From contig JAGVBK010000004.1 in NCBI GenBank assembly GCA_020059745.1, forward strand, positions 178,511 through 242,510: DNA of 64,000 nucleotides, in the 5' to 3' direction. Source of the DNA: Candidatus Shapirobacteria bacterium. GTDB taxonomy: Bacteria > Patescibacteriota > Microgenomatia > UM-FILTER-40-11. The translations under genes and the position numbers were made by a program. This document shows, one piece after another, positions 2,524 through 25,069 of this stretch. Position 1 is the first letter of the stretch. Each line of letters opens with the position of its first letter. Below the pieces are notes generated by a model. It made no database searches, was not told the DNA's origin, and was given only the letters and a program-made list of their open reading frames with translations.

Positions 2524-2552
2524 TTGCCATAAGCTTTGTTTAGTGCTATATT
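2524..2552 (+). promoter_or_regulatory. sigma70-like promoter TTGCCA-17-TATATT upstream of the lipoprotein gene
   Basis: TTGCCA at 2524-2529, a 17-nt spacer, and TATATT at 2547-2552. The -10 element ends 7 nt before the ATG at 2560 and lies inside the longer ORF call that starts at 2536. Confidence 0.4.
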
Positions 2553-3408
2553 AGAGCTAATGTTAAGAAAGTTATTAATTGGCTTTGGCGTTGTTTTTTT
2601 AAGTGTTTTTCTTTCAGGCTGTTCTTTTAAGAAAGACCCTGCTGCCTTACAGATTAACACTAACCCTCCGGCAAATGTTTTTATTGACGGTAAAATTTTA
2701 GGTAAAACCCCTTTTCAGTCAAGTGAAATGCAATCCGGAGAGATTACGGTTAAGCTCATTCCTGAATCAACCGAAGAAGCTCTTTCTTCCTGGGAAAGTA
2801 AAATTACTCTTAATTCCGGGGTTTTAACTTTAATTGAAAGAGAGTTGGGCCAAACCGAGGAAGAATCTTCCGGGCAAATTTTGAGTTTAGAAAAATCAAA
2901 AGACAAAGAACAAGCATCCCTAACAGTTATTTCCAATCCCGACGGTGCTTTAATTCATATTGACGGCGAGGCCAAAGGCTTTACCCCAATCACCATTGAT
3001 CAAATCGGTGTAGGTGATCACCAGATCACCCTTTCCAAGGAAGGCTATGTTGATAAATCAATAAAAGCAAGAGCTGTCGCCGGCTTTAAGTTAATTGTTA
3101 ACGCCAAAATGGGCCAGGAAGTAAACAAAGAATCTACCCCCGCTACTTCTTCCGGAACACCAACGCCTTCAGCAAAGCCAACAGCTGCTTCAGGTTCTTC
3201 CTCAAATTCTTCAACCATAGAAATTAAAGATACCCCAACCGGCTGGCTAAGAGTGAGAAAAGAAGCCAGTACTGCTTCAGCTGAAGTGGGCAAGGTTAAT
3301 CCCGGAGAAACATACGAAATCTTAGAAGAAGAAAATGGTTGGTATAAAATTGAGTATGAAAGCGGTAGTGAAGGTTGGATTTCAGGGCAGTACGCAAAAA
3401 AGATTTGA
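2536..3408 (+). CDS. lipoprotein with two PEGA domains and a C-terminal SH3b domain
   Basis: The signal peptide plus lipobox (LSGC) is best formed from the internal Met at 2560 (MLRKLLIGFGVVFLSVFLSGCSF). PEGA-like repeats are present (NVFIDGKILGKTPF, ALIHIDGEAKGFTPITI). The C-terminus GWLRVRKEAS...GWYKIEYESGSEGWISGQY is a bacterial SH3 domain. The true start may be 2560. Confidence 0.6.
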   Translation: MFSAILELMLRKLLIGFGVVFLSVFLSGCSFKKDPAALQINTNPPANVFIDGKILGKTPFQSSEMQSGEITVKLIPESTEEALSSWESKITLNSGVLTLIERELGQTEEESSGQILSLEKSKDKEQASLTVISNPDGALIHIDGEAKGFTPITIDQIGVGDHQITLSKEGYVDKSIKARAVAGFKLIVNAKMGQEVNKESTPATSSGTPTPSAKPTAASGSSSNSSTIEIKDTPTGWLRVRKEASTASAEVGKVNPGETYEILEEENGWYKIEYESGSEGWISGQYAKKI

Positions 3409-4338
3409 TCAGCCGACTACATAAATCACCCAGATTATAAGAAAACCCCAGACAATTACTGCTCCCAGCAAGGGTTTGTCAGACAGAAGCACTCTTTCCG
3501 GCGATTCCGCTCTTGACCCCTGATAAATTATGTTTAAATAACGCATAATGCCGTAGATAACTACGGGAATCGTGATCATTAGCCATTTGCTTGAACCACT
3601 GATTGTTAAAGGCAAAACACTGTGTATTGAAGGCCCAACCACAATTGGCGGTGACTGCAGAAAGGTAAAAAGGGCCCAGGAAAGCCAGGCTGAGGCAGCA
3701 AACATGGAGAGATAATCATCCAGAAGATCAGGAGGGTAATTAATGAGTGTTTTTCTGTGCCCCGAAACAGCTTCTTTATCAAGTATGGCCAGTTCAGATC
3801 TTCTTTTCCCTACTGCCATGAAAAGAGCCAGGGAAGTAACACAAAGAAGAAACCAGACAGAGATATGGTGGTTAAGAACAATAGCTCCGGCATAAACCCT
3901 TAAGATAAAACTGGCAGCAATCGACAAAACATCAAAAATAATCTGGTTTTTTAAATAGAAGGAGTAAACCAGCTGGAGTAGAAAATAAATGAGACAAACC
4001 AAAAAAAAGAAAAAAGCAGTTTGGTAAGCTAGATAAAGACTTAAAGAAATGCCGATTGAAGCAAAAAAAGCAGCCAGGGGAATGGGTAGTTTACCTGAGG
4101 CGATTGGTCGTTTCTTTTTAAAAGGATGCAGTCTGTCTCTTGAGAAGTCAACAATATCATTTATAAAGTAAACAGAAGAGGTGAGTATGGAAAAAACAAA
4201 AATAGCCCAGATTGTCAGCCAGAAGCTTTCCGGATGAAAAAGCCGTCCGGAAAAAACCAAAGCCGCAGCCAAGCTTAGGTTTTTTAGCCATTGTCTTGGC
4301 CTGGCGGTTTTAAGGATGCTGATAAATAACTGAGCCAT
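3409..4338 (-). CDS. UbiA-family prenyltransferase, decaprenyl-phosphate 5-phosphoribosyltransferase (DPPR synthase)-like
   Basis: The 309-aa polytopic membrane protein has the N-terminus ARPRQWLKN and the Asp-rich motif NDIVDFSRDRLHPFKKKRPIASG (NDxxDxxxD...RPIASG) characteristic of DPPR-synthase-type UbiA enzymes. Confidence 0.7.
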   Translation of the reverse strand: MAQLFISILKTARPRQWLKNLSLAAALVFSGRLFHPESFWLTIWAIFVFSILTSSVYFINDIVDFSRDRLHPFKKKRPIASGKLPIPLAAFFASIGISLSLYLAYQTAFFFFLVCLIYFLLQLVYSFYLKNQIIFDVLSIAASFILRVYAGAIVLNHHISVWFLLCVTSLALFMAVGKRRSELAILDKEAVSGHRKTLINYPPDLLDDYLSMFAASAWLSWALFTFLQSPPIVVGPSIHSVLPLTISGSSKWLMITIPVVIYGIMRYLNIIYQGSRAESPERVLLSDKPLLGAVIVWGFLIIWVIYVVG

Positions 4339-5372
4339 AATATTATTCCCAAAAAAGCAATAACAAGCATGAACATTGTATATAACTTTTGTCTACTATT
4401 CAATTGCAAGGCCAGCAGCCCCAAGAGCGCGGTAATGCTCCAGTAAAAAACAGAAATTCTTTTTTTGCTCCAACCAAGGGCTAGCAGTTTATGGTGAAGG
4501 TGCTCTTTACCCCCCCAGACTGGTGAACGGCCTGATAAGAGTCTTTTGAACACAAGGTAAGAGGCATCTATCAAGGGAACGGCTAAAACAAGCATAAGAG
4601 TAGCGACTTTTGCGGTTGAGAGGATTGAAAGCACGGCCAGCATAAAGCCGGCCAGAGATTTTCCGCTGTAGCCAGGCATAATCTTCTGGGGCGAAAAATT
4701 CCAAGGTAAAAACCCAAGGTAAGAACCGGCCACAACCAGAGCAAGAATAATTACCGGCCATTGGGTAATATCAGCGGAGAATCTTAGGCTCAGGAAAGCA
4801 ATTGTTAAGGCGGCGATCACCACGACTCCTGGCAGCTGGCCTTCGACTCCTCCTGACCAGCCGACAAAATTCATGGTCCAAGCAATCCATAAAAGAGCAA
4901 AAAGATCGGCAAGCAACCAAAGGCAGCGGCTATCACCAAAAAGAGAAAAGCAAAGCTGGGGGTTGTCAAGCCTGATAATTCCACCGAGGGGATTATTGAT
5001 AAAAGCAATTCCAATTCCGGAAAAAACCACCACTCCCGCGGCCAGGAAATTACCCCCCAGCCTTAAAAGGGGATGAATTTTTTCTTCAAAGATATCGTCA
5101 AAGATTCCAACTACTAGCGCTATCAAAGCTCCTAGAAAAATTCCCTGAAGGTGTTTGTCAAGAGGAAGGAAAAATAAGGAAACAGCTATTCCCAGAAAAA
5201 TCGGAATTCCGCCGCCCCGAGGAACTGGATAGGAATGGACAACTTTGGGGTGTTTGTGCTTTTTAGGGTCGTCAACAAAGCCTTTTTTCTTTAAAAAAAG
5301 GATCACTGCCGGAGTAAAAATAAAGCTAACCAAAAACGAGACTAAAAAAGGCAGCAAAAAGGTTAAGGTCAT
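4284..5372 (-). CDS. MraY/WecA-family (glycosyltransferase family 4) polyprenyl-phosphate sugar-1-phosphate transferase
   Basis: The 362-aa protein has about 10 TM segments. There is a DD motif in a cytoplasmic loop (GIFDDIFEEK), an HHH-like region (KEHLHHKL) resembling MraY, and an N-terminal PVPRGGGIP segment. The DGLDG motif is divergent (GGVEG). Confidence 0.6.
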   Translation of the reverse strand: MTLTFLLPFLVSFLVSFIFTPAVILFLKKKGFVDDPKKHKHPKVVHSYPVPRGGGIPIFLGIAVSLFFLPLDKHLQGIFLGALIALVVGIFDDIFEEKIHPLLRLGGNFLAAGVVVFSGIGIAFINNPLGGIIRLDNPQLCFSLFGDSRCLWLLADLFALLWIAWTMNFVGWSGGVEGQLPGVVVIAALTIAFLSLRFSADITQWPVIILALVVAGSYLGFLPWNFSPQKIMPGYSGKSLAGFMLAVLSILSTAKVATLMLVLAVPLIDASYLVFKRLLSGRSPVWGGKEHLHHKLLALGWSKKRISVFYWSITALLGLLALQLNSRQKLYTMFMLVIAFLGIILWLSYLSASLKPPGQDNG

Positions 5373-5722
5373 TAAGTAATTAAAAAAATAATTCTTAAAA
5401 GCGTGATAAATCCAAGTGAAGAAAAAAGCAAGGCAAAGCCGTTGCTTAAAAAGGCCATAAATTTCTCTCCTCTTTTAATAAAGGTTAAAGAAAGCTCTAA
5501 ATTAACAAAAAAGAGAATGAACGAGATTGAAGGAATAAGGAAAAGATAACGAGATAAAGTAAGCTGTTCTTCTCCCCAAGGCCGGCTGTAAAAAAGAGGC
5601 ACTTTCTCCGGCAAGGACTCATTTTTTATTAAGATAAAGAATGTCCCGAGCAGAATGAGGGAAAAATTAACCGCCAGAAGTCTTAAAAGCGTTTTTTCTT
5701 TCTTTAAAAGCTTAGTTTCCAT
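5372..5722 (-). CDS. hypothetical membrane protein (116 aa)
   Basis: Three predicted TM segments. It overlaps the neighbouring genes by a few nucleotides (operon-like) and has no recognisable motif. Confidence 0.4.
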   Translation of the reverse strand: METKLLKKEKTLLRLLAVNFSLILLGTFFILIKNESLPEKVPLFYSRPWGEEQLTLSRYLFLIPSISFILFFVNLELSLTFIKRGEKFMAFLSNGFALLFSSLGFITLLRIIFLIT

Positions 5723-7184
5723 TTAAACCTTTTTTTCTGAAAATGACAAAGTCGCCAATACTTTCAACCTGCCTATAGTTGTTTTTGAGAAGAATTTCCA
5801 GTCCTAAAAAGTCTTCTTTTTTAACATCTTTTATTATGAGGCTGATTTTATCATTTTCAAGCCTGGAAAGCACGGTGTCGGTTTTTTTAAGGTCACTAAC
5901 ATGATAAGCGGCGGCGTAAGGAGTAGCCGGCAGTCTTTGAGATAGAGGATATATATTTGATTCATCAGCCCAAACAAAAACTCTCTCTGTTTTATTGGTA
6001 TTGGCTTTAATAAATTCAGAAATAAGGTAAATCTCCGTCATCCTGGGGTTAAAATAGTTAAAATAACTGGTTTTGTCTTTTTTGCCTCTGGAAAAATCAA
6101 TAAAGTTTCTGTAATAAGAAAAAGTTTCATAAGCCCAGAACTGGTAGCGCCAATAGGTGGCGGTCAAAAACGCAAATAAAAGCAAGGGAAGAGCCTTTCT
6201 TATAATAGTTTTTTGGTTAATTTCTTTTACAAAAATTCCTAGCAAAAGAGAAAAACCCGGAATTACCTGAATAAGATAATGGGGATATGGCCTACCGGAA
6301 AGAGAAGCTCCGTAAAGAGCAAATAGAAACCAAGCCGTAGCCAAGCTTAGGTCTTCTTTTAGCTTTTTTCTGAAAGCAAAAGTTAAAACTAAAGAAAAAA
6401 GCAGGATAATTGACCTGATTGCAAAATCACTTTTAAGAAGCCGAAGAGGGTTAAGGACATGTGAGCCTGTTTCCCAGGAAGAAAGATAGCCAATGGTTTG
6501 CAGAAAAACAGAATTAAAGTAAACACTAAAGGCACCTTTTAAAATAAAATAGGCCGAAACTAAGAAAATGGGTAGTAAAAAGCTAAAGAAAAGGGTAAGG
6601 CCTTCTTTTAGATTGATCCTTTCTTTTTCTCTTAAAAAGATAAGGAAAAAAGAAAGAGCGGCAAAATCAAAAAGAGCTGGTACTTTAAAAAGAAAGGCAG
6701 TTGAAAAAAGCAACCCTGAAAAAATAAAGTTTTTTAAAGACTTTTCTTTGAAAACAGCAAAGTAGCCTAAAACTGCAGGAAGAAGAATAAAGATTTCAGC
6801 GTTAGCAATATTCCCTTCAAGAAACCTGATCGTGGTAAATAAGGCAAAACTGAGAACAGATACTTTAACTGCTTTGTCAGAATTTATGATTTTTTTTGAC
6901 AAAAGGAAGAAAAAATAAATTGAAGCAAGACAGGAGACAAAAAGCATAGACCTAAACCAGTAAAGTCTTCCGTCAGCAAGGGCAGTAAGAAGATAAATTA
7001 AAGGAGGCTTGTTGTCAAAAATATCCCTATAAAGTAAAAGACCCCTTTTTATACCCATTCCCAGGGTAAGATAAATTCCTTCATCGCCATACCAGTAGGG
7101 TTCAAACAAAGAAGGAATTCTTAAAACCGCAACAGAGGCCAAAACAAAAAGAATAAACCGGTTTTTCTTGAAGAAAGAAAGCAT
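5712..7184 (-). CDS. GT-C superfamily membrane glycosyltransferase (ArnT/PMT-like)
   Basis: The 490-aa protein is polytopic along its whole length, with a DE motif in the first extracytoplasmic loop (EPYWYGDEGIY). The C-terminal half is soluble. Confidence 0.5.
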   Translation of the reverse strand: MLSFFKKNRFILFVLASVAVLRIPSLFEPYWYGDEGIYLTLGMGIKRGLLLYRDIFDNKPPLIYLLTALADGRLYWFRSMLFVSCLASIYFFFLLSKKIINSDKAVKVSVLSFALFTTIRFLEGNIANAEIFILLPAVLGYFAVFKEKSLKNFIFSGLLFSTAFLFKVPALFDFAALSFFLIFLREKERINLKEGLTLFFSFLLPIFLVSAYFILKGAFSVYFNSVFLQTIGYLSSWETGSHVLNPLRLLKSDFAIRSIILLFSLVLTFAFRKKLKEDLSLATAWFLFALYGASLSGRPYPHYLIQVIPGFSLLLGIFVKEINQKTIIRKALPLLLFAFLTATYWRYQFWAYETFSYYRNFIDFSRGKKDKTSYFNYFNPRMTEIYLISEFIKANTNKTERVFVWADESNIYPLSQRLPATPYAAAYHVSDLKKTDTVLSRLENDKISLIIKDVKKEDFLGLEILLKNNYRQVESIGDFVIFRKKGLNGN

Positions 7185-7221
7185 TAATTTATTTTAACCA
7201 ATTTGGTTTTTCTTGTAAATT

Positions 7222-8697
7222 CTATACTTTTTCTGTAACTCTGTACTCCATATATTTGCCGAGCATTAGCCTGGTGTGAGCATCAAGTCCGGGCAGCGCG
7301 GTAAAAAAGAAACCAATTATCGGCATCAAAAGGAATTCAAAGGGAATAAGATAAGCTTTTATTTTAGGAACTTCTGCCGGTCTTGGTGGCCGCTGTTTTG
7401 AATCAATAATGATGATAATTGCCAAAAAGATAAGACAAAGAGTCAGGATAAAAGACGAGGTTTTGGACATGTTAAAACCAAGAGCGGTTCTGCTGAAGTT
7501 TTTGTTTATTAAAGAAGGCATATTAATTCCAATAGTAATGATAAACCAGTTAACGGGCCAAAGAAAATGATCTTCAATTAGCCTTAAGGTTCTTATTGTT
7601 TTGTCCCAAAAAGGTATGTTTTTTGAGAGAAAGTATTTTTTAATTACATAAGGATCATCGGAAACCCCCCATGCCCAGCGCTTAAACTGTTCATATTGAT
7701 TATGAAGGGTTTTAAAAAATGAAGTCGATTCAGCGGCATCAGCAGATAAAGGTAAGAAAATCGGCTCAACTTCAACTTTACCGTCGGTGCTAAAAAAGGC
7801 TTTAAAAAAGATGTGCCAGTCTTCGGGAATGACATCAGGGTCCCAATAGCCGATGCGTTCAAGAAGCCTGAAGGAAAGGGCATAGTTTTGTTGGTTTATC
7901 AGCCGATCGGTTCTGGCCAGTTGGGCAATATTCCAGATGGTACCAAAAGTATTAGCTACTCTTGAAGGAGCCGGCAGTCGCCAAAAATTATTATAGAAAA
8001 CAATTGCCGGCTGCCAAAAACGCTCATAACGGTGTGGATCATCTAAAAACTTGTAGGAAAGGTAAGAAAAATGGTTAGGGTGATAAACATGGTCAGCGTC
8101 ACAGGAATAAACAACACAGTAGTTGGGATCAACTTTTTTGCTGTCAATTAGTTGTTTTTTGGCTGTAATTATGGCCGCGCGGGCGTTTGAATGTTTTCCC
8201 GCTGTTTCGCCGGGAATAAGGGTGTGCTCGCTGACAACGATATGTGCAAATTTTCCGCGGAATTTCCGCTTTAATTCCGCGGCTTTTTCTTGCCAGTTTT
8301 CTTCTCTTTTTTCAAAGCCTAAAGCAATGCTTATTTGGTTACCCGGAAGTGTTTGGTCAACCAGGCTTTGGAGTGTTCTTTCCAGGATATAAAGAGGCTC
8401 TTTGTAAGTACAAATAACTACTAGATGGTGTACCTTTTTCCAATCAGGAAAAAACTTGAGCTCTCCCAGCCAGTCCATTTTTTTAGAAGCCTCAATTCTT
8501 AGGTGAGAGATAGTGGCAAAAATCGCCAGAGTAATTGATTTATAAAACCAGAAAATGTCAAAAAGAAGGACAAAGTAAGCAACTCCGGTAGGAACAAAAA
8601 AAGCACCCCAAAAAGGGAAAAGAATCAGATTCCAGGAGACAAATCCGGGAAGAATTTCTAAAACTCTTTGAATAAACCTTGCTTTTTTATTTTTCAT
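7222..8697 (-). CDS. processive family-2 glycosyltransferase (cellulose/chitin/hyaluronan-synthase-like, membrane-embedded)
   Basis: N-terminal and C-terminal TM segments flank a GT-A domain. It carries a DxD-type motif (CDADHVYHP) and the processive-synthase QxxRW motif (EQFKRWAWG). Confidence 0.6.
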   Translation of the reverse strand: MKNKKARFIQRVLEILPGFVSWNLILFPFWGAFFVPTGVAYFVLLFDIFWFYKSITLAIFATISHLRIEASKKMDWLGELKFFPDWKKVHHLVVICTYKEPLYILERTLQSLVDQTLPGNQISIALGFEKREENWQEKAAELKRKFRGKFAHIVVSEHTLIPGETAGKHSNARAAIITAKKQLIDSKKVDPNYCVVYSCDADHVYHPNHFSYLSYKFLDDPHRYERFWQPAIVFYNNFWRLPAPSRVANTFGTIWNIAQLARTDRLINQQNYALSFRLLERIGYWDPDVIPEDWHIFFKAFFSTDGKVEVEPIFLPLSADAAESTSFFKTLHNQYEQFKRWAWGVSDDPYVIKKYFLSKNIPFWDKTIRTLRLIEDHFLWPVNWFIITIGINMPSLINKNFSRTALGFNMSKTSSFILTLCLIFLAIIIIIDSKQRPPRPAEVPKIKAYLIPFEFLLMPIIGFFFTALPGLDAHTRLMLGKYMEYRVTEKV

Positions 8698-10114
8698 TTT
8701 CTAATCTGGGAAACAAAACTGCCTCAGGTTTTATTTCCGGACCTTTGAACTGTTTTAATATTTTTTCAGCTGTTTCCGGTAAAAAGGGCCTGAGATTGCC
8801 GGCAATTTCCCTGATTGTTTCTACTGACTGCAAAAGAAAGTTTTGCAAATCGCTTTTTTCCATTTGCCAGGGCTTTTCTTCGTTAATTCTTTTGTTTTCT
8901 TTTGTTACTTTATGCCAGATTGTTTCCAATGCCTCGTTAAAGCGAAAATCAGCCAATTGTGTGTTTACTTTGCTGTCAAGAGTAATGCTTTTTTGTTCAG
9001 GGAATTTTAACTCTGATTTTTCGCAAAGTCTAGCGATTCGAGAGACTAGGTTGCCAAGGCCGTTTGCCAAGTCAGCGTGATAAACCTCCAAAAATCTTTT
9101 TTGGGAAAAATCACCGTCATTAAAAGGCGGGATTTCTTTTAAAAGGTAGTAACGGACCGGATCAGTGCCATATTTTTTGACAACTTCATAAGGGTCAACC
9201 ACATTGCCGAGTGATTTGCTTATTTTTTGGCCTTCAACTGTGACATAACTGTGGATAAAAATTTCTTTAGGGGTTTCAAGACCAGCACTTTTAAGCATGG
9301 CTGGCCAATAAATTGCGTGGAAACGGGAAATACCCTTGCCGATGACATGCACATCAGCAGGCCAAAACTTTTTAAAAAGCTCTCCGTTTTTCTGCCAGTC
9401 TAAGGCGGTAATATAGTTGGCCAGGGCATCAAACCAGACATAGATAATCTGGTCAGAGTCACCTGGCACAGGAATACCCCAATTGCGAGCTCTTTCCTTG
9501 CTTCTTGAAATACTAAAGTCCTCAAGCCCTGATTTTATAAAAGAAATTACCTCATTTTTTCTTTTATTAGGTGTAATTTTTAGTTTATCCGAGGAGATAA
9601 GTTCAAGAAGCCAATCCTGGTAGCCTGAAAGCCTAAAAAAGTAATTTTCTTCTTCAACCACTTCAGGTTCAATTAAATGTTCCGGGCATTTACCGTCAAC
9701 TAAGTCTTTTTCAGTTAAAAAAGCCTCGCAGCCCATGCAGTATAGGCCTTGGTATTTCTTTTTATAAATATCTTCTTTTTTACACGCTTTCCAGAGAGCT
9801 TGAACCCCTTGAACGTGCCTTTCCTCTGAAGTTTTTATAAAATCATCAAAAGTAAGATTAAGTGCCCCCTTTAGTTCCTTAAACTTGGCTGCATTTTTAT
9901 CAACCAGTTCTTTAACCGGCAGATTAAGAAGGTTAGCCGCTTGAACATTTTTAAGACTGTTTTCATCGGCGCCGGTTAAAAAATAAACTTCTTCGTTAAG
10001 CAGTCGGTGTTGCCGGGCAAGAGTATCTGTTTGCACAATTTCCAAAGCAAACCCAATATGGGGTGAAGCGTTGACAAAGGGGATTGCGCTGGTAATATAA
10101 AACTTCTTGCTCAT
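8687..10114 (-). CDS. metG: methionine--tRNA ligase (core enzyme, no C-terminal tRNA-binding extension)
   Basis: The N-terminus MSKKFYITSAIPFVNASPHIGFA carries the HIGH-type motif, KISKSLGN corresponds to KMSKS, and a CxxC...CPEH zinc knuckle is present. Confidence 0.9.
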   Translation of the reverse strand: MSKKFYITSAIPFVNASPHIGFALEIVQTDTLARQHRLLNEEVYFLTGADENSLKNVQAANLLNLPVKELVDKNAAKFKELKGALNLTFDDFIKTSEERHVQGVQALWKACKKEDIYKKKYQGLYCMGCEAFLTEKDLVDGKCPEHLIEPEVVEEENYFFRLSGYQDWLLELISSDKLKITPNKRKNEVISFIKSGLEDFSISRSKERARNWGIPVPGDSDQIIYVWFDALANYITALDWQKNGELFKKFWPADVHVIGKGISRFHAIYWPAMLKSAGLETPKEIFIHSYVTVEGQKISKSLGNVVDPYEVVKKYGTDPVRYYLLKEIPPFNDGDFSQKRFLEVYHADLANGLGNLVSRIARLCEKSELKFPEQKSITLDSKVNTQLADFRFNEALETIWHKVTKENKRINEEKPWQMEKSDLQNFLLQSVETIREIAGNLRPFLPETAEKILKQFKGPEIKPEAVLFPRLENEK

Positions 10115-10163: not shown

Positions 10164-10613
10164 TTACTTCCCAAAGATTTCTTTAATTTTCTTTTCCCAT
10201 TTTTCTGCCCATTGTTCTGTTTCTATTTTTTCAAGCACAATTTGAAATCCCGGATCAGTTTGTATTTGGCTTTGGATTTGGGAAACAGTAGCAGAAGAAA
10301 CCTTGAGCTTTTTTTTAATTTCCGTATAGCTAAGACCTTCTTTAAGGTATTTTGCTACGGCAATTCTTTTGGCAATGGAAAAAAGCTCAGCTTCAGAAAG
10401 CAGGCCCTTAAGAAGCTTTTCTGTTTCATCGACCCTTCTTGTGTCGGCAATAACCTGATATAAAAGCGACAAGGCTTCTTTTTCAACTTTTTGGTTTATT
10501 TTTTGTGAAGAGACTCTCATTTTTTCTTTTTTAATAAAAAATCCGGCTCGGCCGGACAGGATTACTAGTTTGATTAATAAAATCAAAATATCATTTAAAC
10601 TGATTTTTGTCAA
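10164..10613 (-). CDS. TrpR/YerC-YecD-like DNA-binding protein
   Basis: The 149-aa product has a C-terminal HTH, KYLKEGLSYTEIKKKLKVSSATVSQ, resembling the Trp-repressor-like YerC family. Confidence 0.45.
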   Translation of the reverse strand: MTKISLNDILILLIKLVILSGRAGFFIKKEKMRVSSQKINQKVEKEALSLLYQVIADTRRVDETEKLLKGLLSEAELFSIAKRIAVAKYLKEGLSYTEIKKKLKVSSATVSQIQSQIQTDPGFQIVLEKIETEQWAEKWEKKIKEIFGK

Positions 10614-10992
10614 TTACAGTTGTAGATTTTTTATCCTTACTCTTTGAATAAAGAAACAGCTCAACTGCAATAAAAAAAGCAGCGGAAAGAAAAGTGTTTA
10701 TGATTGAGTCTTGTTTTATTATTCTGAAAAAAAACAGGCTATCAATAAAAAGGGCAGCTAAAAACCCTCTTCTGGTACTGCTAAAAAGAAGAGCCAAAGT
10801 AAGAGAAAGAGAAGCAGTGAGTAGAATAAAAAAGATAATTATATTTTTACCGAAGGACAAGTTTATTGAAAAGATTGATAGCTGAGAGATTTGTTCAGGG
10901 CTGGTTTTAAATATAAAAGCAGCAAGAAGCATCCATAAAAAAATGTTCAAGATAAACGTAGGTAAAAAATTTCTCCGGCTTTTCCTTATCAT
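10591..10992 (-). CDS. hypothetical membrane protein (133 aa)
   Basis: Four hydrophobic segments; overlaps the start of the downstream gene. Confidence 0.35.
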   Translation of the reverse strand: MIRKSRRNFLPTFILNIFLWMLLAAFIFKTSPEQISQLSIFSINLSFGKNIIIFFILLTASLSLTLALLFSSTRRGFLAALFIDSLFFFRIIKQDSIINTFLSAAFFIAVELFLYSKSKDKKSTTVIDKNQFK

Positions 10993-11029
10993 AACCTAAT
11001 TTTATACAAAGCCGTGATAAAATAAAACC

Positions 11030-12040
11030 ATGGCCAGGGAGTTTGTCTTAATCAGTGCTGTTTTAGTTTTAGGTTTTTTGGCGATTATTTTTTTTCTTAA
11101 CCGCAAGCTTTCCTCTAAAGCCGACAGCGCTCTTCTTGAATGGCTTAAAACAATGCAGCTTTCTCTCGACAGTTCAAACAAAAATATAAACGAGACACTC
11201 CAAAAAAGCAGTTTTGAGTTAAACAGAAGGCTTGATCTGGCTTCCCAGCTTATGGGCCAAATCCAGAAAGAAGCCGGTAAGTTTTCCGAGCTTTCCCTGT
11301 CCATGAAAAACTTGCAGGATTACTTAAGAAGCCCGAAACTAAGGGGAAACATTGGAGAACAGGTTCTAAAGGATTTAATCTCACAGATGTTTCCCAAAAA
11401 CTCTTTTTTTCTTCAGTATGCTTTTAAATCCGGCAACAGGGTTGATGCGGCTATTAAAACAGATGCCGGTATCTTGCCGATTGACTCTAAGTTTCCAGCA
11501 GAAAACTTCCAAAGAATGATGATTGCAGAAAGCGAAGCAGAAAAAGAAAGCTCAAAAAAGGACTTTGTCCGTGACATTAAAAAGCACATTGCTGATATTT
11601 CCCAAAAATATATCCTTCCTGAGGAGGGGACCATGGACTTTGCTTTAATGTACATTCCCTCAGAGCCGGTTTACTATGAGGTGATAAATGACTCTGGGCT
11701 TATGGACTTTGCTCGGAAAGAAAGAGTTTATCCTGTTTCCCCCAATACTTTGTATGCCCATCTACAAGTACTTCTTTTGTCTTTTGAAGGCAAGGAGATT
11801 GAGAAAAAATCAAGAAAACTTTTTTCTTTAATAAGGGGAATTCAAAAAGATTACTCAAAATTAAGCGAAAACCTTTCTGTTTTAAACAAGCACATAACCA
11901 ATTCATATAATCAAATGGCCAATGTCAACAATGAGTTTATGCAAATAGGGCAAAAACTAACTTTTACCCAGGCACTTGAAGAAGAAGAAAAAATCGAAAA
12001 AATTGAGATATTTTCCAGAAGTGCTGAGGAATCTTCTTAA
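11030..12040 (+). CDS. rmuC: DNA recombination protein RmuC
   Basis: An N-terminal TM segment, a coiled coil, and the RmuC core LRSPKLRGNIGEQVLKDL...NRVDAAIKTDAGILPIDSKFP. Confidence 0.75.
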   Translation: MAREFVLISAVLVLGFLAIIFFLNRKLSSKADSALLEWLKTMQLSLDSSNKNINETLQKSSFELNRRLDLASQLMGQIQKEAGKFSELSLSMKNLQDYLRSPKLRGNIGEQVLKDLISQMFPKNSFFLQYAFKSGNRVDAAIKTDAGILPIDSKFPAENFQRMMIAESEAEKESSKKDFVRDIKKHIADISQKYILPEEGTMDFALMYIPSEPVYYEVINDSGLMDFARKERVYPVSPNTLYAHLQVLLLSFEGKEIEKKSRKLFSLIRGIQKDYSKLSENLSVLNKHITNSYNQMANVNNEFMQIGQKLTFTQALEEEEKIEKIEIFSRSAEESS

Positions 12041-12399
12041 GGAGCTTGGCTATTAATTAATCTTCTTGTTCTGTTTTTAAAGATTTTACCGTCTTTTTTA
12101 AAATAATTTTCATCAATTATTCCTGCAATTTCTCTTCCGTACCTTTTGGTAAATTCTCCCAAGGACTTACTAAGTATTTCAGCCTTTGGTTCAGAAATCA
12201 TGCCGTTTATCAAAACAACTTTTCTTACAACTTCCGGTCTTAGACCAGTACTTTCTGACAGTTCAGTGATTCTTCCTTCTGTTATTGTTGCTTCGTTTAT
12301 TTGTCTTTGCAGCCTTGCCGAGGTAGGTGGGGAATCAGTAGCTGGGCCAAGTCCGTGTGCTATCCTTAATCTTTCCAGAGAAAATTCAGTTTCTCTCAT
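12037..12399 (-). CDS. hypothetical protein with a putative helix-turn-helix
   Basis: The 120-aa product has an HTH-like segment, RITELSESTGLRPEVVRKV. Its family is not recognised. Confidence 0.35.
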   Translation of the reverse strand: MRETEFSLERLRIAHGLGPATDSPPTSARLQRQINEATITEGRITELSESTGLRPEVVRKVVLINGMISEPKAEILSKSLGEFTKRYGREIAGIIDENYFKKDGKIFKNRTRRLINSQAP

Positions 12400-12468: not shown

Positions 12469-15400
12469 ATGGCAGTTATCTTTTTTAAATATTTAAAGCT
12501 TCAATGCTATAATTACCTCGTGTCTGATTCTTCTGAAAAGAAATTAAATCCAGAGCAAAAAAAAGCAATTGAACACGGAAACGGCCCGCTTTTAATTATT
12601 GCCGGAGCAGGAACAGGAAAAACCACGGTTATCACCGAAAGAGTCAGGTTTTTAATTTCTGAAAAAAAAGTTTCGCCCTCAGAAATTTTAGCTCTTACTT
12701 TTACGGAAAAAGCAGCCAGGGAAATGGAAGAGAGGATAGATGAAAAGTTGCCTTTAGGTTATGCTGACATGTGGATTTCCACTTTTCATGCTTTCTGTGA
12801 CCGGATTCTTCGCAATGAGGCCATAAATATTGGCCTTGATCCTAAATACAAGGTTATGACTCAGGCAGAAAACATCCAATTTTTAAGAAAAAACCTTTTT
12901 AAATTTGAACTTGATTATTTCAGACCCTTAGGAAACCCGAATAAATTTTTGGAAGGTTTGCTTGTGCATTTTTCACGCCTTAAAGACGAGACAGTTTCTA
13001 AAGAAGAATATTTGAAATATTTTGAGAAAATTTCTGCTGACATAAATAATAAAAAGAAATTAAAAAGCGAAGAAAGAGAAATGCTTGAAGAAGAAATAAA
13101 AAAAACCGAAGAATTGGCAAAAGCTTACCGGAAATATGAAGAGCTTAAGATAAAAGAAGGGCTTTTTGATTTCAGCGACCTTATTGATAAGGTTTTGACA
13201 ATCTTTAAAGAAAGACCGGGGATTGTTGGCAGATACCGTCAAAAATTTAAATATATTTTAATTGATGAGTTTCAGGATACAAACTTTGCCCAGTACACCT
13301 TAATAAAAATGCTTGCTCCGCCGCCTTTGGCTAATTTGACTGTCGTTGGTGACGATAACCAGTCAATCTACAAGTTTAGGGGAGCTGCAATTTCCAATAT
13401 CTTGCAGTTTAACAAAGATTATCCTCAGTCAAAAAACATTATTTTAAATAAAAACTATCGTTCTTCTCAGACAATTTTGGATTCAGCCTACAAGCTAATT
13501 AAAGAAAATGATCCCGATACTCTTGAGGCAAAATTGGGAATTAGTAAAAAGCTTGAAAAAATGCGTGAGGTGAGTGAAGAGCCGGTTGAATTTCTTTTTG
13601 CGGATCGGGTTGAAGACGAAGCAGGGTTGGTGGCGGAAAAGGTAAAAAGCTTAATTGACCGCTATTCTTATAAAGACTTTGCGGTTTTAGTAAGAGCAAA
13701 CAGCCATGCCGAGCCCTTTTTAAGGGCTTTTGAAAGAGCGGGTATTCCTTGCCAATTTTTAGGCCCGGCCATGCTTTTCCGCCAGCCAGAAGTGAAAGAT
13801 CTAATTTCATATTTAAAAGTGCTTAATGATTACGAAGACTCTGTTTCAATGTATAGACTGCTTTCTATGGATTACTTTAACATTCACGGTCGGGATTTAG
13901 CTTTTTTGCTTAATTTAAGCCGCAAAAGAAAAATTTCTCTTTTTGAAGTCTGCGAAGAAGCAGCCGTATCTGAGGAAGCTGCAATCAGCATGGAGGCAAA
14001 AGAGAAAATAAAAAAAATTGTTAAAACAATTCATTCTCACCTTGATTTAGCCAAAACTGAAAATGCTGGCAAGATTCTTTACTGGTTTTTAGATGAAAGC
14101 GGGTATCTAAGAAGGCTTTCTAATTACCAAGCCTCTGATGATGAAAGAAGGGTTCAAAATATTAAAAAGTTTTTTGATAAAATAACGACTTTTGAGGCTG
14201 AACACGAAGATGCTTCTGTTTTTTCTTTAGTTGAACACATTAACCTTTGCCTTGAGCTGGGAGAGTCTCCTTTAGCCAATGATACAGACTGGCAGGAAAA
14301 CGACGCCGTTAACCTGCTTACGGTCCATTCAGCGAAAGGGCTTGAGTTTCCGGTTGTTTTTTTAGTAAACCTGGTTACCCAGCGCTTTCCCACCACCGAA
14401 AGACGCGAGCAAATCCCAATTCCTGATGCTTTGATAAAAGAAATCTTGCCACAAGGTGATTTTCATCTTCAAGAAGAAAGAAGACTTTTTTATGTAGGCA
14501 TGACTAGAGCCAAAGATAGGCTTTTTTTGACTGCTGCCAAGTATTATGGCGAGGGAAAGCGGGAAAAAAAGATTTCCCCTTTTATTTATGAAGCGCTTGG
14601 CAAAGAGTTTTTTAATAATTCTTCTTCAAAGAAAAAAAGCCAACTTTCACTTTTTGGAATAACCGTGGCAAAAAATGAGCCTAGAAAAGAAAAAACACCT
14701 CTGTTTTTTAACTCTCTTTCCTACTCTCAGCTTGATACTTTTAGCACCTGTGGCCTTAAGTATAAATATAGCTACATTCTTAACCTTCCTGCCCCACCCT
14801 CGGCATCTCTTTCTTTTGGTAGCGCTATTCACGAAACTCTTTGTGACTTTTACCAAAAAGCAATGGTCGGACAAAAGCCGGGCAAGGAAACACTTTTGAA
14901 AACCTTGGCGGAAAACTGGAGACCTTTAGGTTTTTCTTCAAAAGAACACGAAGAAAAGTTTAAAAAAGAAGGAGAAAAGATTTTAACTGAGTATTTTGAA
15001 AAAAGTTATGACCCCAAAAATTTGCCGGTGGCTTTAGAAGTGCCTTTTATGGTTAGAATAAGCCCGTCTTTAAAGATAAAGGGTAAGATTGACAGAATTG
15101 ATCGCGTAGAACGCGACAAGTCCGTAGAACGCGACAAGTCCGAGTATGAAATAGAAATTATTGACTACAAAACCGGTAAGTCTGCTACTCAAAAAGAAGT
15201 TGAAAAAGATCTTCAACTTTCGCTTTATGCCCTGGCAGTTTCTGAGGGCAATCTTAGACACTTGGGAATTAAAGATAAAGCGGAGGTTAAGGTTTCTTTT
15301 TATTTCTTAAACACTCAGGAAAAGGTTTCAACTATTAAGAAACCAGAGGATCTTAATATGGCGCGACAGGAAGTTTTGAAAAAAGTTGAAGAAATGGTTA

Positions 15401-15477
15401 ATTCCGATTTTCCTCCAAAACCCGGCAAACACTGTGACTTTTGTGAGTTTAGGATGTTATGCGAAGCTTGGTCTTAA
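12469..15477 (+). CDS. UvrD/PcrA-type SF1 helicase fused to a C-terminal PD-(D/E)XK Cas4/AddB-like Fe-S nuclease domain (single-chain AddAB-like helicase-nuclease)
   Basis: The N-terminus GPLLIIAGAGTGKTT is followed by UvrD motifs (DEFQDT, VGDDNQSIY, VHSAKGLEFPVVF, YVGMTRAK). The C-terminus has the RecB-nuclease motifs GKIDRIDR, IIDYKTGK and QLSLYALA, plus four Cys (TCGLKY...HCDFCEFRMLC) typical of Cas4/AddB iron-sulfur nucleases. Confidence 0.8.
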   Translation: MAVIFFKYLKLQCYNYLVSDSSEKKLNPEQKKAIEHGNGPLLIIAGAGTGKTTVITERVRFLISEKKVSPSEILALTFTEKAAREMEERIDEKLPLGYADMWISTFHAFCDRILRNEAINIGLDPKYKVMTQAENIQFLRKNLFKFELDYFRPLGNPNKFLEGLLVHFSRLKDETVSKEEYLKYFEKISADINNKKKLKSEEREMLEEEIKKTEELAKAYRKYEELKIKEGLFDFSDLIDKVLTIFKERPGIVGRYRQKFKYILIDEFQDTNFAQYTLIKMLAPPPLANLTVVGDDNQSIYKFRGAAISNILQFNKDYPQSKNIILNKNYRSSQTILDSAYKLIKENDPDTLEAKLGISKKLEKMREVSEEPVEFLFADRVEDEAGLVAEKVKSLIDRYSYKDFAVLVRANSHAEPFLRAFERAGIPCQFLGPAMLFRQPEVKDLISYLKVLNDYEDSVSMYRLLSMDYFNIHGRDLAFLLNLSRKRKISLFEVCEEAAVSEEAAISMEAKEKIKKIVKTIHSHLDLAKTENAGKILYWFLDESGYLRRLSNYQASDDERRVQNIKKFFDKITTFEAEHEDASVFSLVEHINLCLELGESPLANDTDWQENDAVNLLTVHSAKGLEFPVVFLVNLVTQRFPTTERREQIPIPDALIKEILPQGDFHLQEERRLFYVGMTRAKDRLFLTAAKYYGEGKREKKISPFIYEALGKEFFNNSSSKKKSQLSLFGITVAKNEPRKEKTPLFFNSLSYSQLDTFSTCGLKYKYSYILNLPAPPSASLSFGSAIHETLCDFYQKAMVGQKPGKETLLKTLAENWRPLGFSSKEHEEKFKKEGEKILTEYFEKSYDPKNLPVALEVPFMVRISPSLKIKGKIDRIDRVERDKSVERDKSEYEIEIIDYKTGKSATQKEVEKDLQLSLYALAVSEGNLRHLGIKDKAEVKVSFYFLNTQEKVSTIKKPEDLNMARQEVLKKVEEMVNSDFPPKPGKHCDFCEFRMLCEAWS
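15106..15141 (+). repeat. perfect 18-bp tandem duplication (2 copies) inside the nuclease domain of the helicase-nuclease gene
   Basis: gtagaacgcgacaagtcc occurs at 15106-15123 and again at 15124-15141. It is in frame and gives VERDKS-VERDKS between nuclease motifs II and III. Confidence 0.9.
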
Positions 15478-16285: not shown

Positions 16286-16410
16286 ATTTATTAAATTCCA
16301 AATTCCAAGCTCCAAGTTCCAAAAAATTACCAATATTCAAATCCTAAATACTTGTTACATATTATTTGCTCCTTGGTTATTGGAATTTTTTGTTTCTTGT
16401 TTTTTGATTA

Positions 16411-25067: not shown

Positions 25068-25069
25068 CA

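Follow-up and report, generated by a model that had tools for sequence, protein, structure and literature searches.

Positions 3409-8697 of the 64-kb window (the whole stretch of DNA analysed here) contain five minus-strand genes, whose products are a GT2 membrane enzyme, a GT-C, a small membrane protein of 116 aa, a polyprenyl-phosphate phospho-sugar transferase of the WecA/MraY family (PNPT) and a UbiA-family enzyme. Microgenomates-type Patescibacteria share the cluster as a syntenic core, one that ranks among their most conserved syntenic blocks, and its gene set recurs in many CPR lineages. From this window, which covers 64 kb of a contig at least 371 kb long, and from related CPR loci, we lean towards the view that the operon encodes the membrane enzymes of a pathway that depends on a lipid carrier to build an envelope glycan and belongs to the conserved core of these bacteria.

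In the pathway proposed, homology and active-site conservation predict that the UbiA enzyme moves 5-phosphoribose from PRPP to polyprenyl phosphate, giving polyprenyl-P-beta-D-ribofuranose-5-P. An unlinked phosphatase would then strip the 5-phosphate, and the resulting lipid-P-ribose would be flipped outward. There, as gene neighbourhood suggests, outer-face GT-Cs would add pentofuranose from the lipid-P-ribose donor onto an acceptor, the enzyme involved being the 490-aa GT-C in this operon and a PMT-type GT-C encoded directly 3' of UbiA in more distant lineages. As a fourth step, the PNPT, whose family membership is clear, would act with the small membrane protein to make a polyprenyl-PP-linked primer, the sugar of which is presumably a HexNAc. 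The GT2, synthase-like in fold, may then extend this primer or else polymerise and export a backbone, and an LCP ligase encoded elsewhere in the window could anchor the product to peptidoglycan.

Organization and conservation of the operon

Neighbouring genes in the operon overlap or lie no more than 37 nt apart. The GT2 start is overlapped by 11 nt by a methionyl-tRNA synthetase gene (MetRS; 8687-10114, minus strand), a conserved upstream neighbour whose presence is probably a matter of context and not of function. A gap of 37 nt separates GT2 from GT-C, while GT-C and the small ORF overlap by 11 nt, the small ORF and PNPT by 1 nt and PNPT and UbiA by 55 nt. Such tight packing of five genes fits a single operon and suggests co-transcription; a scan of the window for promoters and terminators returned counts close to shuffled expectation. 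A preliminary description had listed four of the ORFs, all of which are present on the minus strand where it placed them; the fifth, at 5372-5722 (minus strand; 116 aa), was missing from its list. Identical proteins for the operon exist in GenBank (RJR25926-RJR25930, from a Candidatus Microgenomates MAG), and the UbiA and PNPT proteins are already named there. No description of the gene set was found in the papers searched, nor did the literature searched contain biochemical or glycan-composition data for any Patescibacterium.

The order GT2-GT-C-small ORF-PNPT-UbiA is retained in loci whose proteins have diverged to 47% (GT2) and 26-30% (GT-C) identity. The PNPT gene adjoins UbiA in 82/83 loci, usually with an overlap of 52-64 nt, and is the gene directly upstream of UbiA in 54/54 eligible metagenome loci. 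GT-C is found upstream in 30/39 loci, the cluster lacking it in 9/39; GT2 is upstream in 18/22 loci, and MetRS in 18/22 eligible ones. Genomically, UbiA is tied most firmly to PNPT and not to the 490-aa GT-C. A pathway of this kind had been considered unexpected in a small, CPR-like genome, a view contradicted by the conservation of the cluster in Microgenomates-type Patescibacteria and by the occurrence of the UbiA gene in Saccharibacteria and WWE3 as well.

The UbiA-family enzyme and the identity of the pentose

The UbiA-superfamily protein (309 aa; 3409-4338, minus strand) is very probably a PRPP-dependent polyprenyl-P phosphoribosyltransferase, that is, a homologue of DPPR synthase. It matches the NCBIfam DPPR-synthase models NF008977 and NF008978 with 208.9 and 204.5 bits, slightly below both equivalog cutoffs, which counts somewhat against the assignment, and the structure of Rv3806c (PDB 8j8j) with E=3.3e-32. 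The sequence NDIVDFSRDRLHPFKKKRPIASG, singled out earlier as a signature of this enzyme class, is indeed present (UbiA residues 60-82; 4093-4161, minus strand) and comprises the first Asp-rich motif and the cytoplasmic-loop Lys/Arg cluster of the PRPP site. Eleven of the 12 residues that make up the PRPP, ribose, 5-phosphate and Mg sites of Rv3806c (roles according to PMC10994848) are identical in the UbiA protein (R22, K28, Y70, N73, D77, K87, R90, Q135, Y138, K143 and K208), and Y157 of Rv3806c is replaced by Phe. In an alignment of 17 UbiA sequences, 15 from Patescibacteria and two from other phyla, 9 of the 12 positions are invariant, Gln135, Lys143 and Lys208 being variable in some of the sequences.

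A general match to the Pfam UbiA family (65.2 bits; cutoff 34.2), together with the label 4-hydroxybenzoate polyprenyltransferase in one source, might suggest an aromatic or other prenyltransferase of the MenA, UbiA or heme o synthase type, having no link to sugars. However, the heme o, GGGP, chlorophyll and UbiA prenyltransferase models score at most 45 bits, against 209 for DPPR synthase, and the protein keeps the ribose- and 5-phosphate-binding residues, which are not conserved in prenyltransferases according to the Rv3806c study (PMC10994848). These two lines of evidence effectively refute a prenyltransferase identity, to which we give hardly any credence. As the preliminary description had proposed, the protein falls in the DPPR-synthase clade, away from the MenA/UbiA quinone clade.

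The UbiA protein is homologous to a component of the decaprenyl-P-arabinose/arabinogalactan pathway of Mycobacterium tuberculosis (Rv3806c, Rv3807c, DprE1/DprE2, Rv3789, Emb/Aft GT-Cs, WecA, GlfT2 and Lcp1), with which the CPR cluster shares the logic of a PNPT primer, a lipid-P-pentose donor, GT-Cs, a GT2 and an LCP ligase, the last encoded within the window. The two differ in that CPR loci yielded no homologue of DprE1/DprE2 or of the GtrA-like Rv3789, and no phosphatase of the Rv3807c type. The extension of the analogy to arabinose, drawn earlier, finds no support: neither the 64-kb window nor about 95 related CPR loci gave a DprE1/DprE2 homologue, although the search picked up its positive controls on a Chondrinema plasmid and in an Acidimicrobiia locus. 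The lack of this pair in the sequence examined makes ribofuranose likelier than arabinofuranose, and we give ribose rather than arabinose an even chance of being the pentose. Similarly, no 5-phosphatase (PAP2 or HAD-IB) and no GtrA/MATE flippase was found linked to the cluster in the window or the approximately 95 related CPR loci. One speculative candidate for the phosphatase is an unlinked HAD-type phosphatase-like protein (22611-23162, plus strand), recognized by DLDGV, SSR and DDD motifs read from the sequence and by weak Pfam HAD matches below cutoff; no homologue lies near the cluster in other loci.

The concept of the operon matches published "three-component" pentofuranose systems, composed of a PPPRS, a flippase and a GT-C (PMC11127046) and exemplified in Citrobacter youngae by ORF15 (PPPRS-PRP), ORF14 (MATE flippase) and ORF12 (GT136) (Kelly et al. 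2024, PMC11127046). In such systems, ribofuranose is the default product when an epimerase is lacking (PMC11127046). Both types pair a PRPP-dependent polyprenyl-P phosphoribose synthase with GT-Cs. No HAD phosphatase domain is fused to the CPR enzyme, in contrast to its C. youngae counterpart, nor does a MATE or GtrA flippase gene lie in cis; in turn, the CPR cluster always includes PNPT and its small subunit and usually the synthase-like GT2. Moreover, the published three-component systems modify O antigens by adding side chains, whereas the CPR genes form a conserved core cluster. DPPR-synthase homologues with 34-35% identity are found on Lactococcus plasmid pLLF27D and on a Chondrinema litorale plasmid, where, in common with CPR loci, the synthase has large membrane or GT39 proteins as neighbours; on pLLF27D it is also near an LCP ligase. 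In the non-CPR systems (the Lactococcus plasmid and a phage contig), 5-phosphatase and flippase genes accompany DPPR synthase. A HAD-IB phosphatase and GtrA right beside the synthase on pLLF27D, and an FAD oxidase and SDR (a DprE1/DprE2 pair) in the same position on the Chondrinema plasmid, have no equivalents in CPR clusters.

The GT-C protein, its donor and its acceptor

The GT-C fold glycosyltransferase (490 aa; 5712-7184, minus strand) ends in a small C-terminal alpha/beta domain and belongs to a family seen in this analysis only in Patescibacteria. The DE motif attributed to it previously is borne out by the sequence YGDEGIY (7071-7091, minus strand), in which an invariant pair, D34 E35, follows TM1 in the first outer loop, a putative catalytic loop. 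Among solved structures, polyprenyl-P-mannose and Ara4N transferases come closest to it, rather than arabinofuranosyltransferases; structurally, the CPR protein is nearer to ArnT, PMT and ALG enzymes than to the mycobacterial Aft or Emb. No similarity could be detected between this protein and the membrane proteins encoded beside DPPR synthase on the plasmids of Lactococcus and Chondrinema. The enzyme families invoked in the earlier proposal of a polyprenyl-P-pentofuranose GT-C pathway are present, while it is gene neighbourhood that suggests the use of the UbiA product by some GT-C, a reading we hold to be slightly better than even.

Conceivably, GT-C and GT2 are merely syntenic with UbiA, the 490-aa protein using an ordinary polyprenyl-P-hexose (with mannose or glucose, for instance) that a GtrB/Ppm1-type enzyme from another locus supplies, and the UbiA product feeding other GT-Cs or another sink. 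Small GtrB/Ppm1-sized GT2 genes are found within GT-C arrays of related CPR genomes, indicating that ordinary polyprenyl-P-hexose donors occur in the group. We consider this arrangement unlikely, since one or other GT-C family flanks UbiA in most lineages (the 490-aa family upstream; PMT-type or DUF2298 proteins downstream), GT39-annotated GT-Cs also lie beside the DPPR synthase on the Chondrinema plasmid, and no GtrB/Ppm1-type GT2 was detected among the scanned ORFs of at least 150 aa in the 64-kb window despite its five GT-C-like genes.

The acceptor might also be a protein rather than a wall polymer, PMT-like GT-Cs attaching pentofuranose by O-glycosylation to surface proteins rich in Ser/Thr or to type IV pilins. 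A precedent, as cited in PMC11127046, is TfpW, which puts D-arabinofuranose on Pseudomonas aeruginosa pilin; genes for PilN and PilO lie within the window. The 490-aa GT-C has a PMT-style DE motif after TM1, and full PMT+PMT_4TMC enzymes are encoded immediately 3' of UbiA in distant lineages (L009, L011, L084, L087 and L088 by Pfam; L010 and L012 have a PMT-type GT-C there by sequence motif). Furthermore, a convergent gene (2536-3408, plus strand) encodes a lipoprotein in which a domain search and linker composition reveal two PEGA domains, a Ser/Thr/Pro-rich linker and an SH3 domain; it is conserved downstream of UbiA in 47/56 eligible loci, and its role as acceptor would be speculative. However, Ser/Thr/Pro linkers are common among secreted proteins, and a protein acceptor leaves unexplained why the tightest linkage is with PNPT and the synthase-like GT2. 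We regard it as rather doubtful, and favour the glycan pathway outlined above.

The PNPT, its small partner and the GT2

The neighbour of UbiA is a WecA/MraY-family PNPT (362 aa; 4284-5372, minus strand), in agreement with the preliminary description. It matches Pfam Glycos_transf_4 (71.4 bits; cutoff 27), its family profile matches MraY structures at 2.7e-17, and D92, D93, N168, D269, H291, H293 and H294 are invariant. The Glycos_transf_4 domain, DD motif and third Asp are shared with WecA, TagO and MraY, and its HLHH motif resembles the HIHH of WecA. In contrast to these enzymes, it scores far under the equivalog cutoffs of the TIGR models (wecA 71.6 bits, mraY 41.3 bits), and its motif NxxNWSxGV(D/E)GQ corresponds to the canonical DGxDG without the first Asp. 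It also has a dedicated partner, the 116-aa membrane protein (5372-5722, minus strand), which has about three hydrophobic segments by hydropathy and bears the motif VPLFYSRPWGEEQL. This protein has no Pfam or NCBIfam match but has homologues in 651 cluster representatives at E<=0.001; its gene keeps its position between GT-C and PNPT in related loci and is fused onto the PNPT N-terminus in a Saccharibacteria locus (L014:1391-2878), and the two proteins are likely to work as partners.

The PNPT and UbiA genes, unlinked in M. tuberculosis, overlap in the CPR operon. Their near-constant adjacency, the divergence of the PNPT with its dedicated subunit, and the failure to find a phosphatase in cis in any CPR locus examined would all suit a serial action of both enzymes on one lipid, the PNPT taking, for example, the 5-phosphate of polyprenyl-P-ribose-5-P as a phosphate-monoester acceptor. 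Were this so, the product would be either a lipid-linked primer that contains ribose phosphate or an anionic polymer resembling teichoic acid, and no 5-phosphatase would be needed. We find it improbable: we know of no precedent for such chemistry, a shared polyprenyl-phosphate pool and one end product account for the tight linkage equally well, and loss of the first Asp is not diagnostic, as the DGxDG aspartates are missing from human GPT as well.

The GT2 (491 aa; 7222-8697, minus strand; Pfam Glyco_trans_2_3, 33.9 bits, cutoff 27) consists of two N-terminal helices, a GT-A domain, a QFKRW interface helix and about four C-terminal TM helices. Its membrane-embedded fold resembles cellulose and hyaluronan synthases, unlike GlfT2, and it has the D, DxD, ED, QxxRW constellation. 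The DAD (residues 200-202; 8092-8100, minus strand) and QxxRW (QFKRW, residues 337-341; 7675-7689, minus strand) motifs and the synthase-like fold announced in the preliminary description are thus verified. Neither of the two observations that this description had named as fatal to it, a UbiA protein of the quinone clade or a GT2 lacking the synthase fold, was made. Processivity, also claimed, cannot be inferred, since the protein that matches best in structure, the minimal cellulose-synthase-like mannosyltransferase PcManGT, is non-processive. Compared with membrane-embedded synthases (BcsA, class I hyaluronan synthases) and PcManGT, the GT2 resembles no solved synthase at the sequence level, and an invariant Glu takes the place of its first UDP-binding Asp. 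Finally, an unlinked gene of the window (19465-20406, plus strand) encodes an LCP-family glycopolymer-peptidoglycan ligase (Pfam, 125.9 bits; TIGR00350, 105.6 bits), which may serve in this pathway to tether a polyprenyl-PP-linked polymer to the cell wall.

Layout of the cluster and its UbiA-family protein

Five tightly spaced genes occupy the minus strand between positions 3409 and 8697. In the direction of transcription, they encode a GT2 glycosyltransferase (7222-8697, 491 aa), a GT-C protein (5712-7184, 490 aa), a small membrane protein (5372-5722, 116 aa), a WecA/MraY-family transferase (PNPT; 4284-5372, 362 aa) and a UbiA-family protein (3409-4338, 309 aa). The preliminary description had presented this region as a four-gene operon. 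The four genes are indeed there, but the small protein had been missed and the ORF count is five. A 37-nt gap separates the first two genes and the remaining junctions are overlaps of 11, 1 and 55 nt. The end of the gene for methionyl-tRNA synthetase (MetRS; 8687-10114) shares 11 nt (8687-8697) with the start of GT2. At the opposite end, a convergent plus-strand gene (2536-3408), encoding a lipoprotein with two PEGA domains, a Ser/Thr/Pro-rich linker and an SH3 domain, ends at position 3408 with no base between its end and the UbiA stop codon. We infer that the cluster genes are co-transcribed; a promoter and terminator scan gave counts near the shuffled expectation and left the operon boundaries undefined. 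All of the motifs originally quoted were located in the window proteins: NDIVDFSRDRLHPFKKKRPIASG in UbiA (4093-4161), DAD (8092-8100) and QFKRW (7675-7689) in GT2, and DE in GT-C (within 7071-7091). Three cluster proteins scored above the Pfam gathering score (UbiA, Glycos_transf_4 and Glyco_trans_2_3). Identical proteins are deposited in GenBank under a Candidatus Microgenomates MAG, where the UbiA protein (RJR25926.1) is named decaprenyl-phosphate phosphoribosyltransferase, the PNPT undecaprenyl/decaprenyl-phosphate alpha-N-acetylglucosaminyl 1-phosphate transferase, and both the GT-C and the small protein are labeled "hypothetical".

The UbiA protein scored 208.9 bits with NCBIfam DPPR-synthase (polyprenyl-phosphate 5-phosphoribosyltransferase) equivalog NF008977 (cutoff 234) and 204.5 bits with NF008978 (cutoff 207), narrowly short of the curated cutoff in both cases. 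Models for heme o synthase, GGGP synthase, chlorophyll synthase, EboC and 4-hydroxybenzoate prenyltransferase gave at most 45 bits. The only solved structures matched were entries for Rv3806c, the Mycobacterium tuberculosis DPPR synthase (best E=3.3e-32). In Rv3806c, Asn73 and Asp77 bind Mg2+; Asn73 and Gln135 contact the ribose, Lys28, Tyr70 and Tyr157 the 5-phosphate, and Arg22, Lys87, Arg90, Tyr138 and Lys143 the pyrophosphate, while Lys208 is part of a positively charged cleft; this phosphoribose site is not conserved in prenyltransferases (PMC10994848). These twelve positions (R22, K28, Y70, N73, D77, K87, R90, Q135, Y138, K143, Y157, K208) were compared in an alignment of the window protein, 14 other Patescibacteria orthologues and two non-CPR homologues, with Rv3806c as reference. 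The window protein is identical to Rv3806c at 11 of the 12, the exception being Phe in place of Tyr157, a replacement also found in some mycobacteria (PMC10994848). Nine positions never change among the 17 non-reference sequences; some of the sequences differ at Gln135, Lys143 and Lys208. The assignment to the DPPR-synthase type, as opposed to MenA/UbiA, was thus borne out by the score difference (209 versus at most 45 bits), the Rv3806c match and the retained PRPP site. As judged from sequence, the window protein very probably catalyzes PRPP-dependent phosphoribosyl transfer to polyprenyl phosphate, an assignment that we regard as well supported.

The partner enzymes

The PNPT matched Pfam PF00953 with 71.4 bits (cutoff 27) and keeps the DD motif, the third Asp and the HLHH motif, with D92, D93, D269, H291, H293 and H294 invariant among 11 orthologues. 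Where WecA and MraY have NxxNxxDGxDG, however, it reads NxxNWSxGV(D/E)GQ, and its scores lie far below the equivalog cutoffs for WecA (TIGR02380, 71.6 versus 326 bits) and MraY (TIGR00445, 41.3 versus 192 bits). Its family profile reaches only MraY among solved structures (2.7e-17). By these sequence criteria the protein represents a separate subfamily within the PNPT superfamily. The possibility that it is the cell's MraY was set aside on the strength of the 41-bit score against a cutoff of 192; the true mraY would lie outside the window.

The 116-aa protein has no family match. Its own family comprises 651 cluster representatives sharing the motif VPLFYSRPWGExQL. In a Saccharibacteria locus (L014:1391-2878), one 495-aa protein has this module at its N-terminus, fused to the PNPT, which argues that the small protein is a PNPT partner rather than a flippase; its identification as a GtrA-like flippase was set aside for this reason and for the lack of a family match. 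The fused gene is closely preceded by a distant GT2 (27% identity), with UbiA 1.4 kb further downstream.

The GT2 has a GT-A domain preceded by two N-terminal helices and followed by an interface helix bearing QxxRW and about four C-terminal helices. Family invariants are E129, D200 and D202 (DAD), E292, D293, Q337 and R340, with W341 conserved in at least 90% of members; the PED sequence containing E292 and D293 is the counterpart of TED. The protein therefore displays the D, DxD, (T)ED and QxxRW motifs together with transmembrane and interface helices, and structural comparison gave no grounds for denying it the synthase fold that had been proposed. Processive action, in turn, cannot be deduced, since a sequence search against solved structures returned no significant match to any synthase and the top structural match, PcManGT, is a non-processive enzyme using lipid-linked acceptors. 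Conservation within the family is unusually high: of more than 4,697 matches, the best 120 clusters are 61-81% identical.

The 490-aa protein is a GT-C enzyme: it has the multi-transmembrane GT-C fold, and its first outer loop bears a conserved acidic motif. The Pfam PMT_2 score (19.6 bits) is under the 26.1 cutoff and a sequence search against solved structures found nothing significant, so fold comparison was used in its place. Scores were 20.9 for GPI mannosyltransferase I, 20.5 for ALG3, 18.6 for ArnT (385 residues aligned), 18.2 for Pmt4 and 18.0 for AglB; arabinofuranosyltransferases scored lower (AftA 13.6, AftD 12.2, AftB 11.9, EmbA 8.1), and an Emb/Aft-type identity was not found. Invariant residues include D34 and E35 directly past the first transmembrane helix, D57-N58-K59-P61 and R298-P299-Y300-H302. 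All homologues bearing names, among more than 2,257 matches, belong to Patescibacteria, and hhalign revealed no relationship of the family to the membrane proteins adjacent to DPPR synthases on Lactococcus and Chondrinema plasmids (probability below 1%). Neither sequence nor fold pointed to any particular transferred sugar.

Gene neighborhoods in other Patescibacteria

Species-representative genomes and gene look-ups gave the order MetRS, GT2, in some cases an extra GT-C, GT-C, small protein, PNPT and UbiA, followed by the convergent PEGA-SH3 lipoprotein gene. This order is kept down to 47% identity for GT2 and about 30% for GT-C. In a sample of 80 metagenome loci, with counts limited to loci having enough flanking sequence, the PNPT gene was directly upstream of UbiA in 54 of 54, GT-C upstream of UbiA in 30 of 39, GT2 upstream in 18 of 22, MetRS upstream of GT2 also in 18 of 22, and the lipoprotein gene downstream of UbiA in 47 of 56. 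The linkage of MetRS, a housekeeping gene, to a glycan cluster is a long-lived and unexplained association. In the lipoprotein, 16 of 30 linker residues are Ser or Thr, and this protein could be a target of glycosylation.

Several loci (L022, L077, L090-L093) have GT2, small protein, PNPT and UbiA with no intervening GT-C, indicating that these four genes form the constant core and that GT-C is variable. In more distant lineages a PMT-type GT-C gene is found downstream of UbiA, on the same strand and within about 350 nt (L009:7577-8968; L010:10970-12313; L011:10934-12286; L012:10977-12332; L084:10279-11862; L087:9935-11383; L088:9938-11410), the distance being 4-20 nt in six of these seven loci. 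Pfam detected PMT and PMT_4TMC domains in L009, L011, L084, L087 and L088, and a (Y/I/M/Q)FDEVYHA motif is present in six of the seven, including L010 and L012 (L087 was recognized by Pfam only). In L085 a DUF2298 protein (10197-12359) directly follows UbiA in place of the PMT-type enzyme. From the upstream and downstream genes combined, UbiA appears to be flanked by some GT-C family in most lineages. The UbiA gene of Saccharibacteria and WWE3 (46-47% identity) resides in other gene contexts.

Six of the compared loci (L004, L005, L022-L024, L029) carry a gene for a DedA/VTT-domain membrane protein just past the PEGA-SH3 gene; in the window, such a gene lies about 36 kb from it (40184-40840, plus strand). 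DedA proteins have been linked to polyprenyl-phosphate recycling and might be relevant to the carrier-lipid supply of the cluster.

Outside CPR, DPPR synthase genes have other companions. On a Lactococcus plasmid the order is large membrane protein, DPPR synthase, HAD-IB phosphatase and GtrA, with an LCP ligase nearby; on a Chondrinema plasmid, GT39 genes, DPPR synthase, FAD oxidase and SDR, a DprE1/DprE2 arrangement. A phage contig pairs the synthase with HAD-IB and an Acidimicrobiia locus (L018) pairs it with a DprE1 homologue. BLAST searches with HAD-IB, GtrA, DprE1-like, DprE2-like and GT39 references gave no match in the window or in any of about 95 CPR loci; the phage control was positive for HAD-IB. 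Likewise, tblastn with the Chondrinema DprE1/DprE2 pair detected nothing in the window, L001-L016 or L022-L101, and was positive for the Acidimicrobiia control. The analogy drawn in the preliminary description with the mycobacterial DPA (arabinose) route found no support: the DprE1/DprE2 pair was found neither in the window nor in the approximately 95 CPR loci. In a Pfam scan of 150 neighbor ORFs sampled across 31 CPR loci, the families PAP2, HAD, SDR (adh_short), FAD_binding_4 and GtrA did not recur, the sole recurrent glycan-related neighbors being further PMT-type GT-Cs. Thus no MATE or GtrA flippase was seen in the locus, by BLAST for GtrA or among the recurrent Pfam families, and no 5-phosphoribose phosphatase is fused or adjacent, the 309-aa UbiA protein having no extra domain.

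The only window candidate for a 5-phosphatase is a HAD-like ORF (22611-23162, plus strand) with DLDGV, SSR and DDD motifs and no curated family; it has no linkage to UbiA here, and the other loci lack it. This ORF opens a run of four plus-strand genes (22611-26461), overlapping by 4 to 23 nt or 2 nt apart, which continues with a GT4 glycosyltransferase, a SAM methyltransferase and a GT-C-like protein (463 aa; PMT_2 under cutoff).

A possible pathway and other genes of the window

In the published three-component systems for pentofuranose glycosylation, a PRPP-dependent polyprenyl-P phosphoribose synthase works together with a phosphatase, a flippase and a GT-C; their default product is ribofuranose, with xylofuranose or arabinofuranose made only when an epimerase is present (PMC11127046). 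The CPR cluster matches the first and last components, synthase and GT-C, and extends this set by the PNPT and its partner as well as a synthase-like GT2. It also recalls the logic of mycobacterial arabinogalactan, with a WecA-type primer, a lipid-P-pentose donor, GT-Cs and an LCP ligase; an LCP gene is present in the window (19465-20406). We favor, as the best reading, a conserved pathway for an envelope glycan in which GT-C would draw on polyprenyl-P-ribofuranose as its donor. The cluster would then predict a PRPP-derived pentofuranose, probably ribofuranose, carried on polyprenyl phosphate and installed outside the membrane beside a PNPT-primed glycan. Family membership, folds, motifs and synteny are established by the analysis; the connection from UbiA to GT-C, the primer sugar, the dephosphorylation and flipping steps, and the acceptor are all inferred elements of this scheme.

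Alternatively, the GT-C donor may be an ordinary polyprenyl-P-hexose. GtrB-sized GT2 genes do occur within the GT-C arrays of CPR relatives; among the scanned window ORFs of at least 150 aa, there is no GtrB/Ppm1-type GT2. The acceptor, for its part, may be a protein, as in pilin arabinosylation by TfpW. A further alternative concerns the PNPT-UbiA pair. These genes are adjacent in 82 of the 83 loci holding both (the exception being in Saccharibacteria), typically with a 52-64 nt overlap, and are never fused in frame among these 83. If both enzymes worked on one intermediate, the near-universal overlap and the missing phosphatase would be accounted for, but such a model has no known precedent. 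The boldest version of the ribofuranose reading holds that Patescibacteria share a lineage-defining envelope polymer or glycoconjugate of PRPP-derived ribofuranose (possibly ribose-5-phosphate), built by an obligatorily coupled PNPT, small subunit and phosphoribosyltransferase together with a GT2 of hyaluronan-synthase-like type, and needing no phosphatase, epimerase or flippase of its own. We consider this improbable as a whole. Were it true, neither the biosynthetic route nor the wall component would have a counterpart described so far, and the product might be a CPR stand-in for teichoic acids or arabinogalactan.

Patescibacteria cells live attached to hosts, a lifestyle probably governed by surface molecules, and to our knowledge almost nothing is known of their envelope chemistry. 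Within the library searched, no paper tied CPR bacteria to DPPR synthase, UbiA, GT-C, ribofuranose or arabinofuranose. The individual families were known before, GenBank already carries correct names for two of the five proteins, and the general concept dates from a 2024 publication. We believe the following to be new: the realization that the cluster is a conserved core throughout Patescibacteria, the stripped-down set of genes that it contains, the obligatory coupling of PNPT and UbiA, the family of small PNPT partners and a GT-C family met here in Patescibacteria only. If the ribofuranose pathway is correct, pentofuranose systems would reach the whole superphylum in a stripped-down form lacking the usual accessory enzymes, and GT-C and small-protein families now annotated as hypothetical would acquire a role. 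Co-culture and genetic tools are available for Saccharibacteria (PMC10633639); as the UbiA gene is found in this group, the prediction can be tested by gene disruption and sugar analysis.

Several other genes of the window are of note. An FAD oxidoreductase (29759-31030, minus strand) matches the uncharacterized family NF005560/PRK07233 of NCBIfam with 450 bits. Two PMT_2-type GT-C genes (26427-28127 and 28105-29811) are on the same strand, one overlapping it. Homologues in three other Patescibacteria loci (L102, L103, L104) are within arrays of four or five GT-C genes, where small GT2s and a GT4 also occur; L103 has an SDR as well. Such a grouping of flavin oxidase and SDR with GT-Cs formally resembles DprE1/DprE2, with a different flavoprotein fold; the enzyme could be a lipid-linked sugar oxidase or epimerase. 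The LCP ligase gene is convergent with, and overlaps the end of, a DUF2298/Chlor_Arch_YYY gene (together 19465-22533) encoding a 711-aa membrane protein (TIGR03662, 543 bits); in L102 a DUF2298 gene is beside the FAD oxidoreductase and an LCP gene. Two tandem FemAB-family genes (15449-17439, minus strand) suggest, when taken with the MurJ, YceG/MltG-like, sortase and LCP genes in other parts of the window, that the peptidoglycan is of the Gram-positive type and has peptide cross-bridges. At 59222-62307 (plus strand), a sortase gene immediately follows the gene of a 771-aa protein whose match to a Baseplate_J-like family is weak, an odd pairing for CPR. Finally, an Rfam RF03531 match (Clostridioides difficile sRNA "included into helicase gene"; 68.3 bits, 14442-14544, plus strand) falls inside the ORF of a 1002-aa UvrD/PcrA-type helicase and most likely represents conserved coding sequence rather than an RNA gene.
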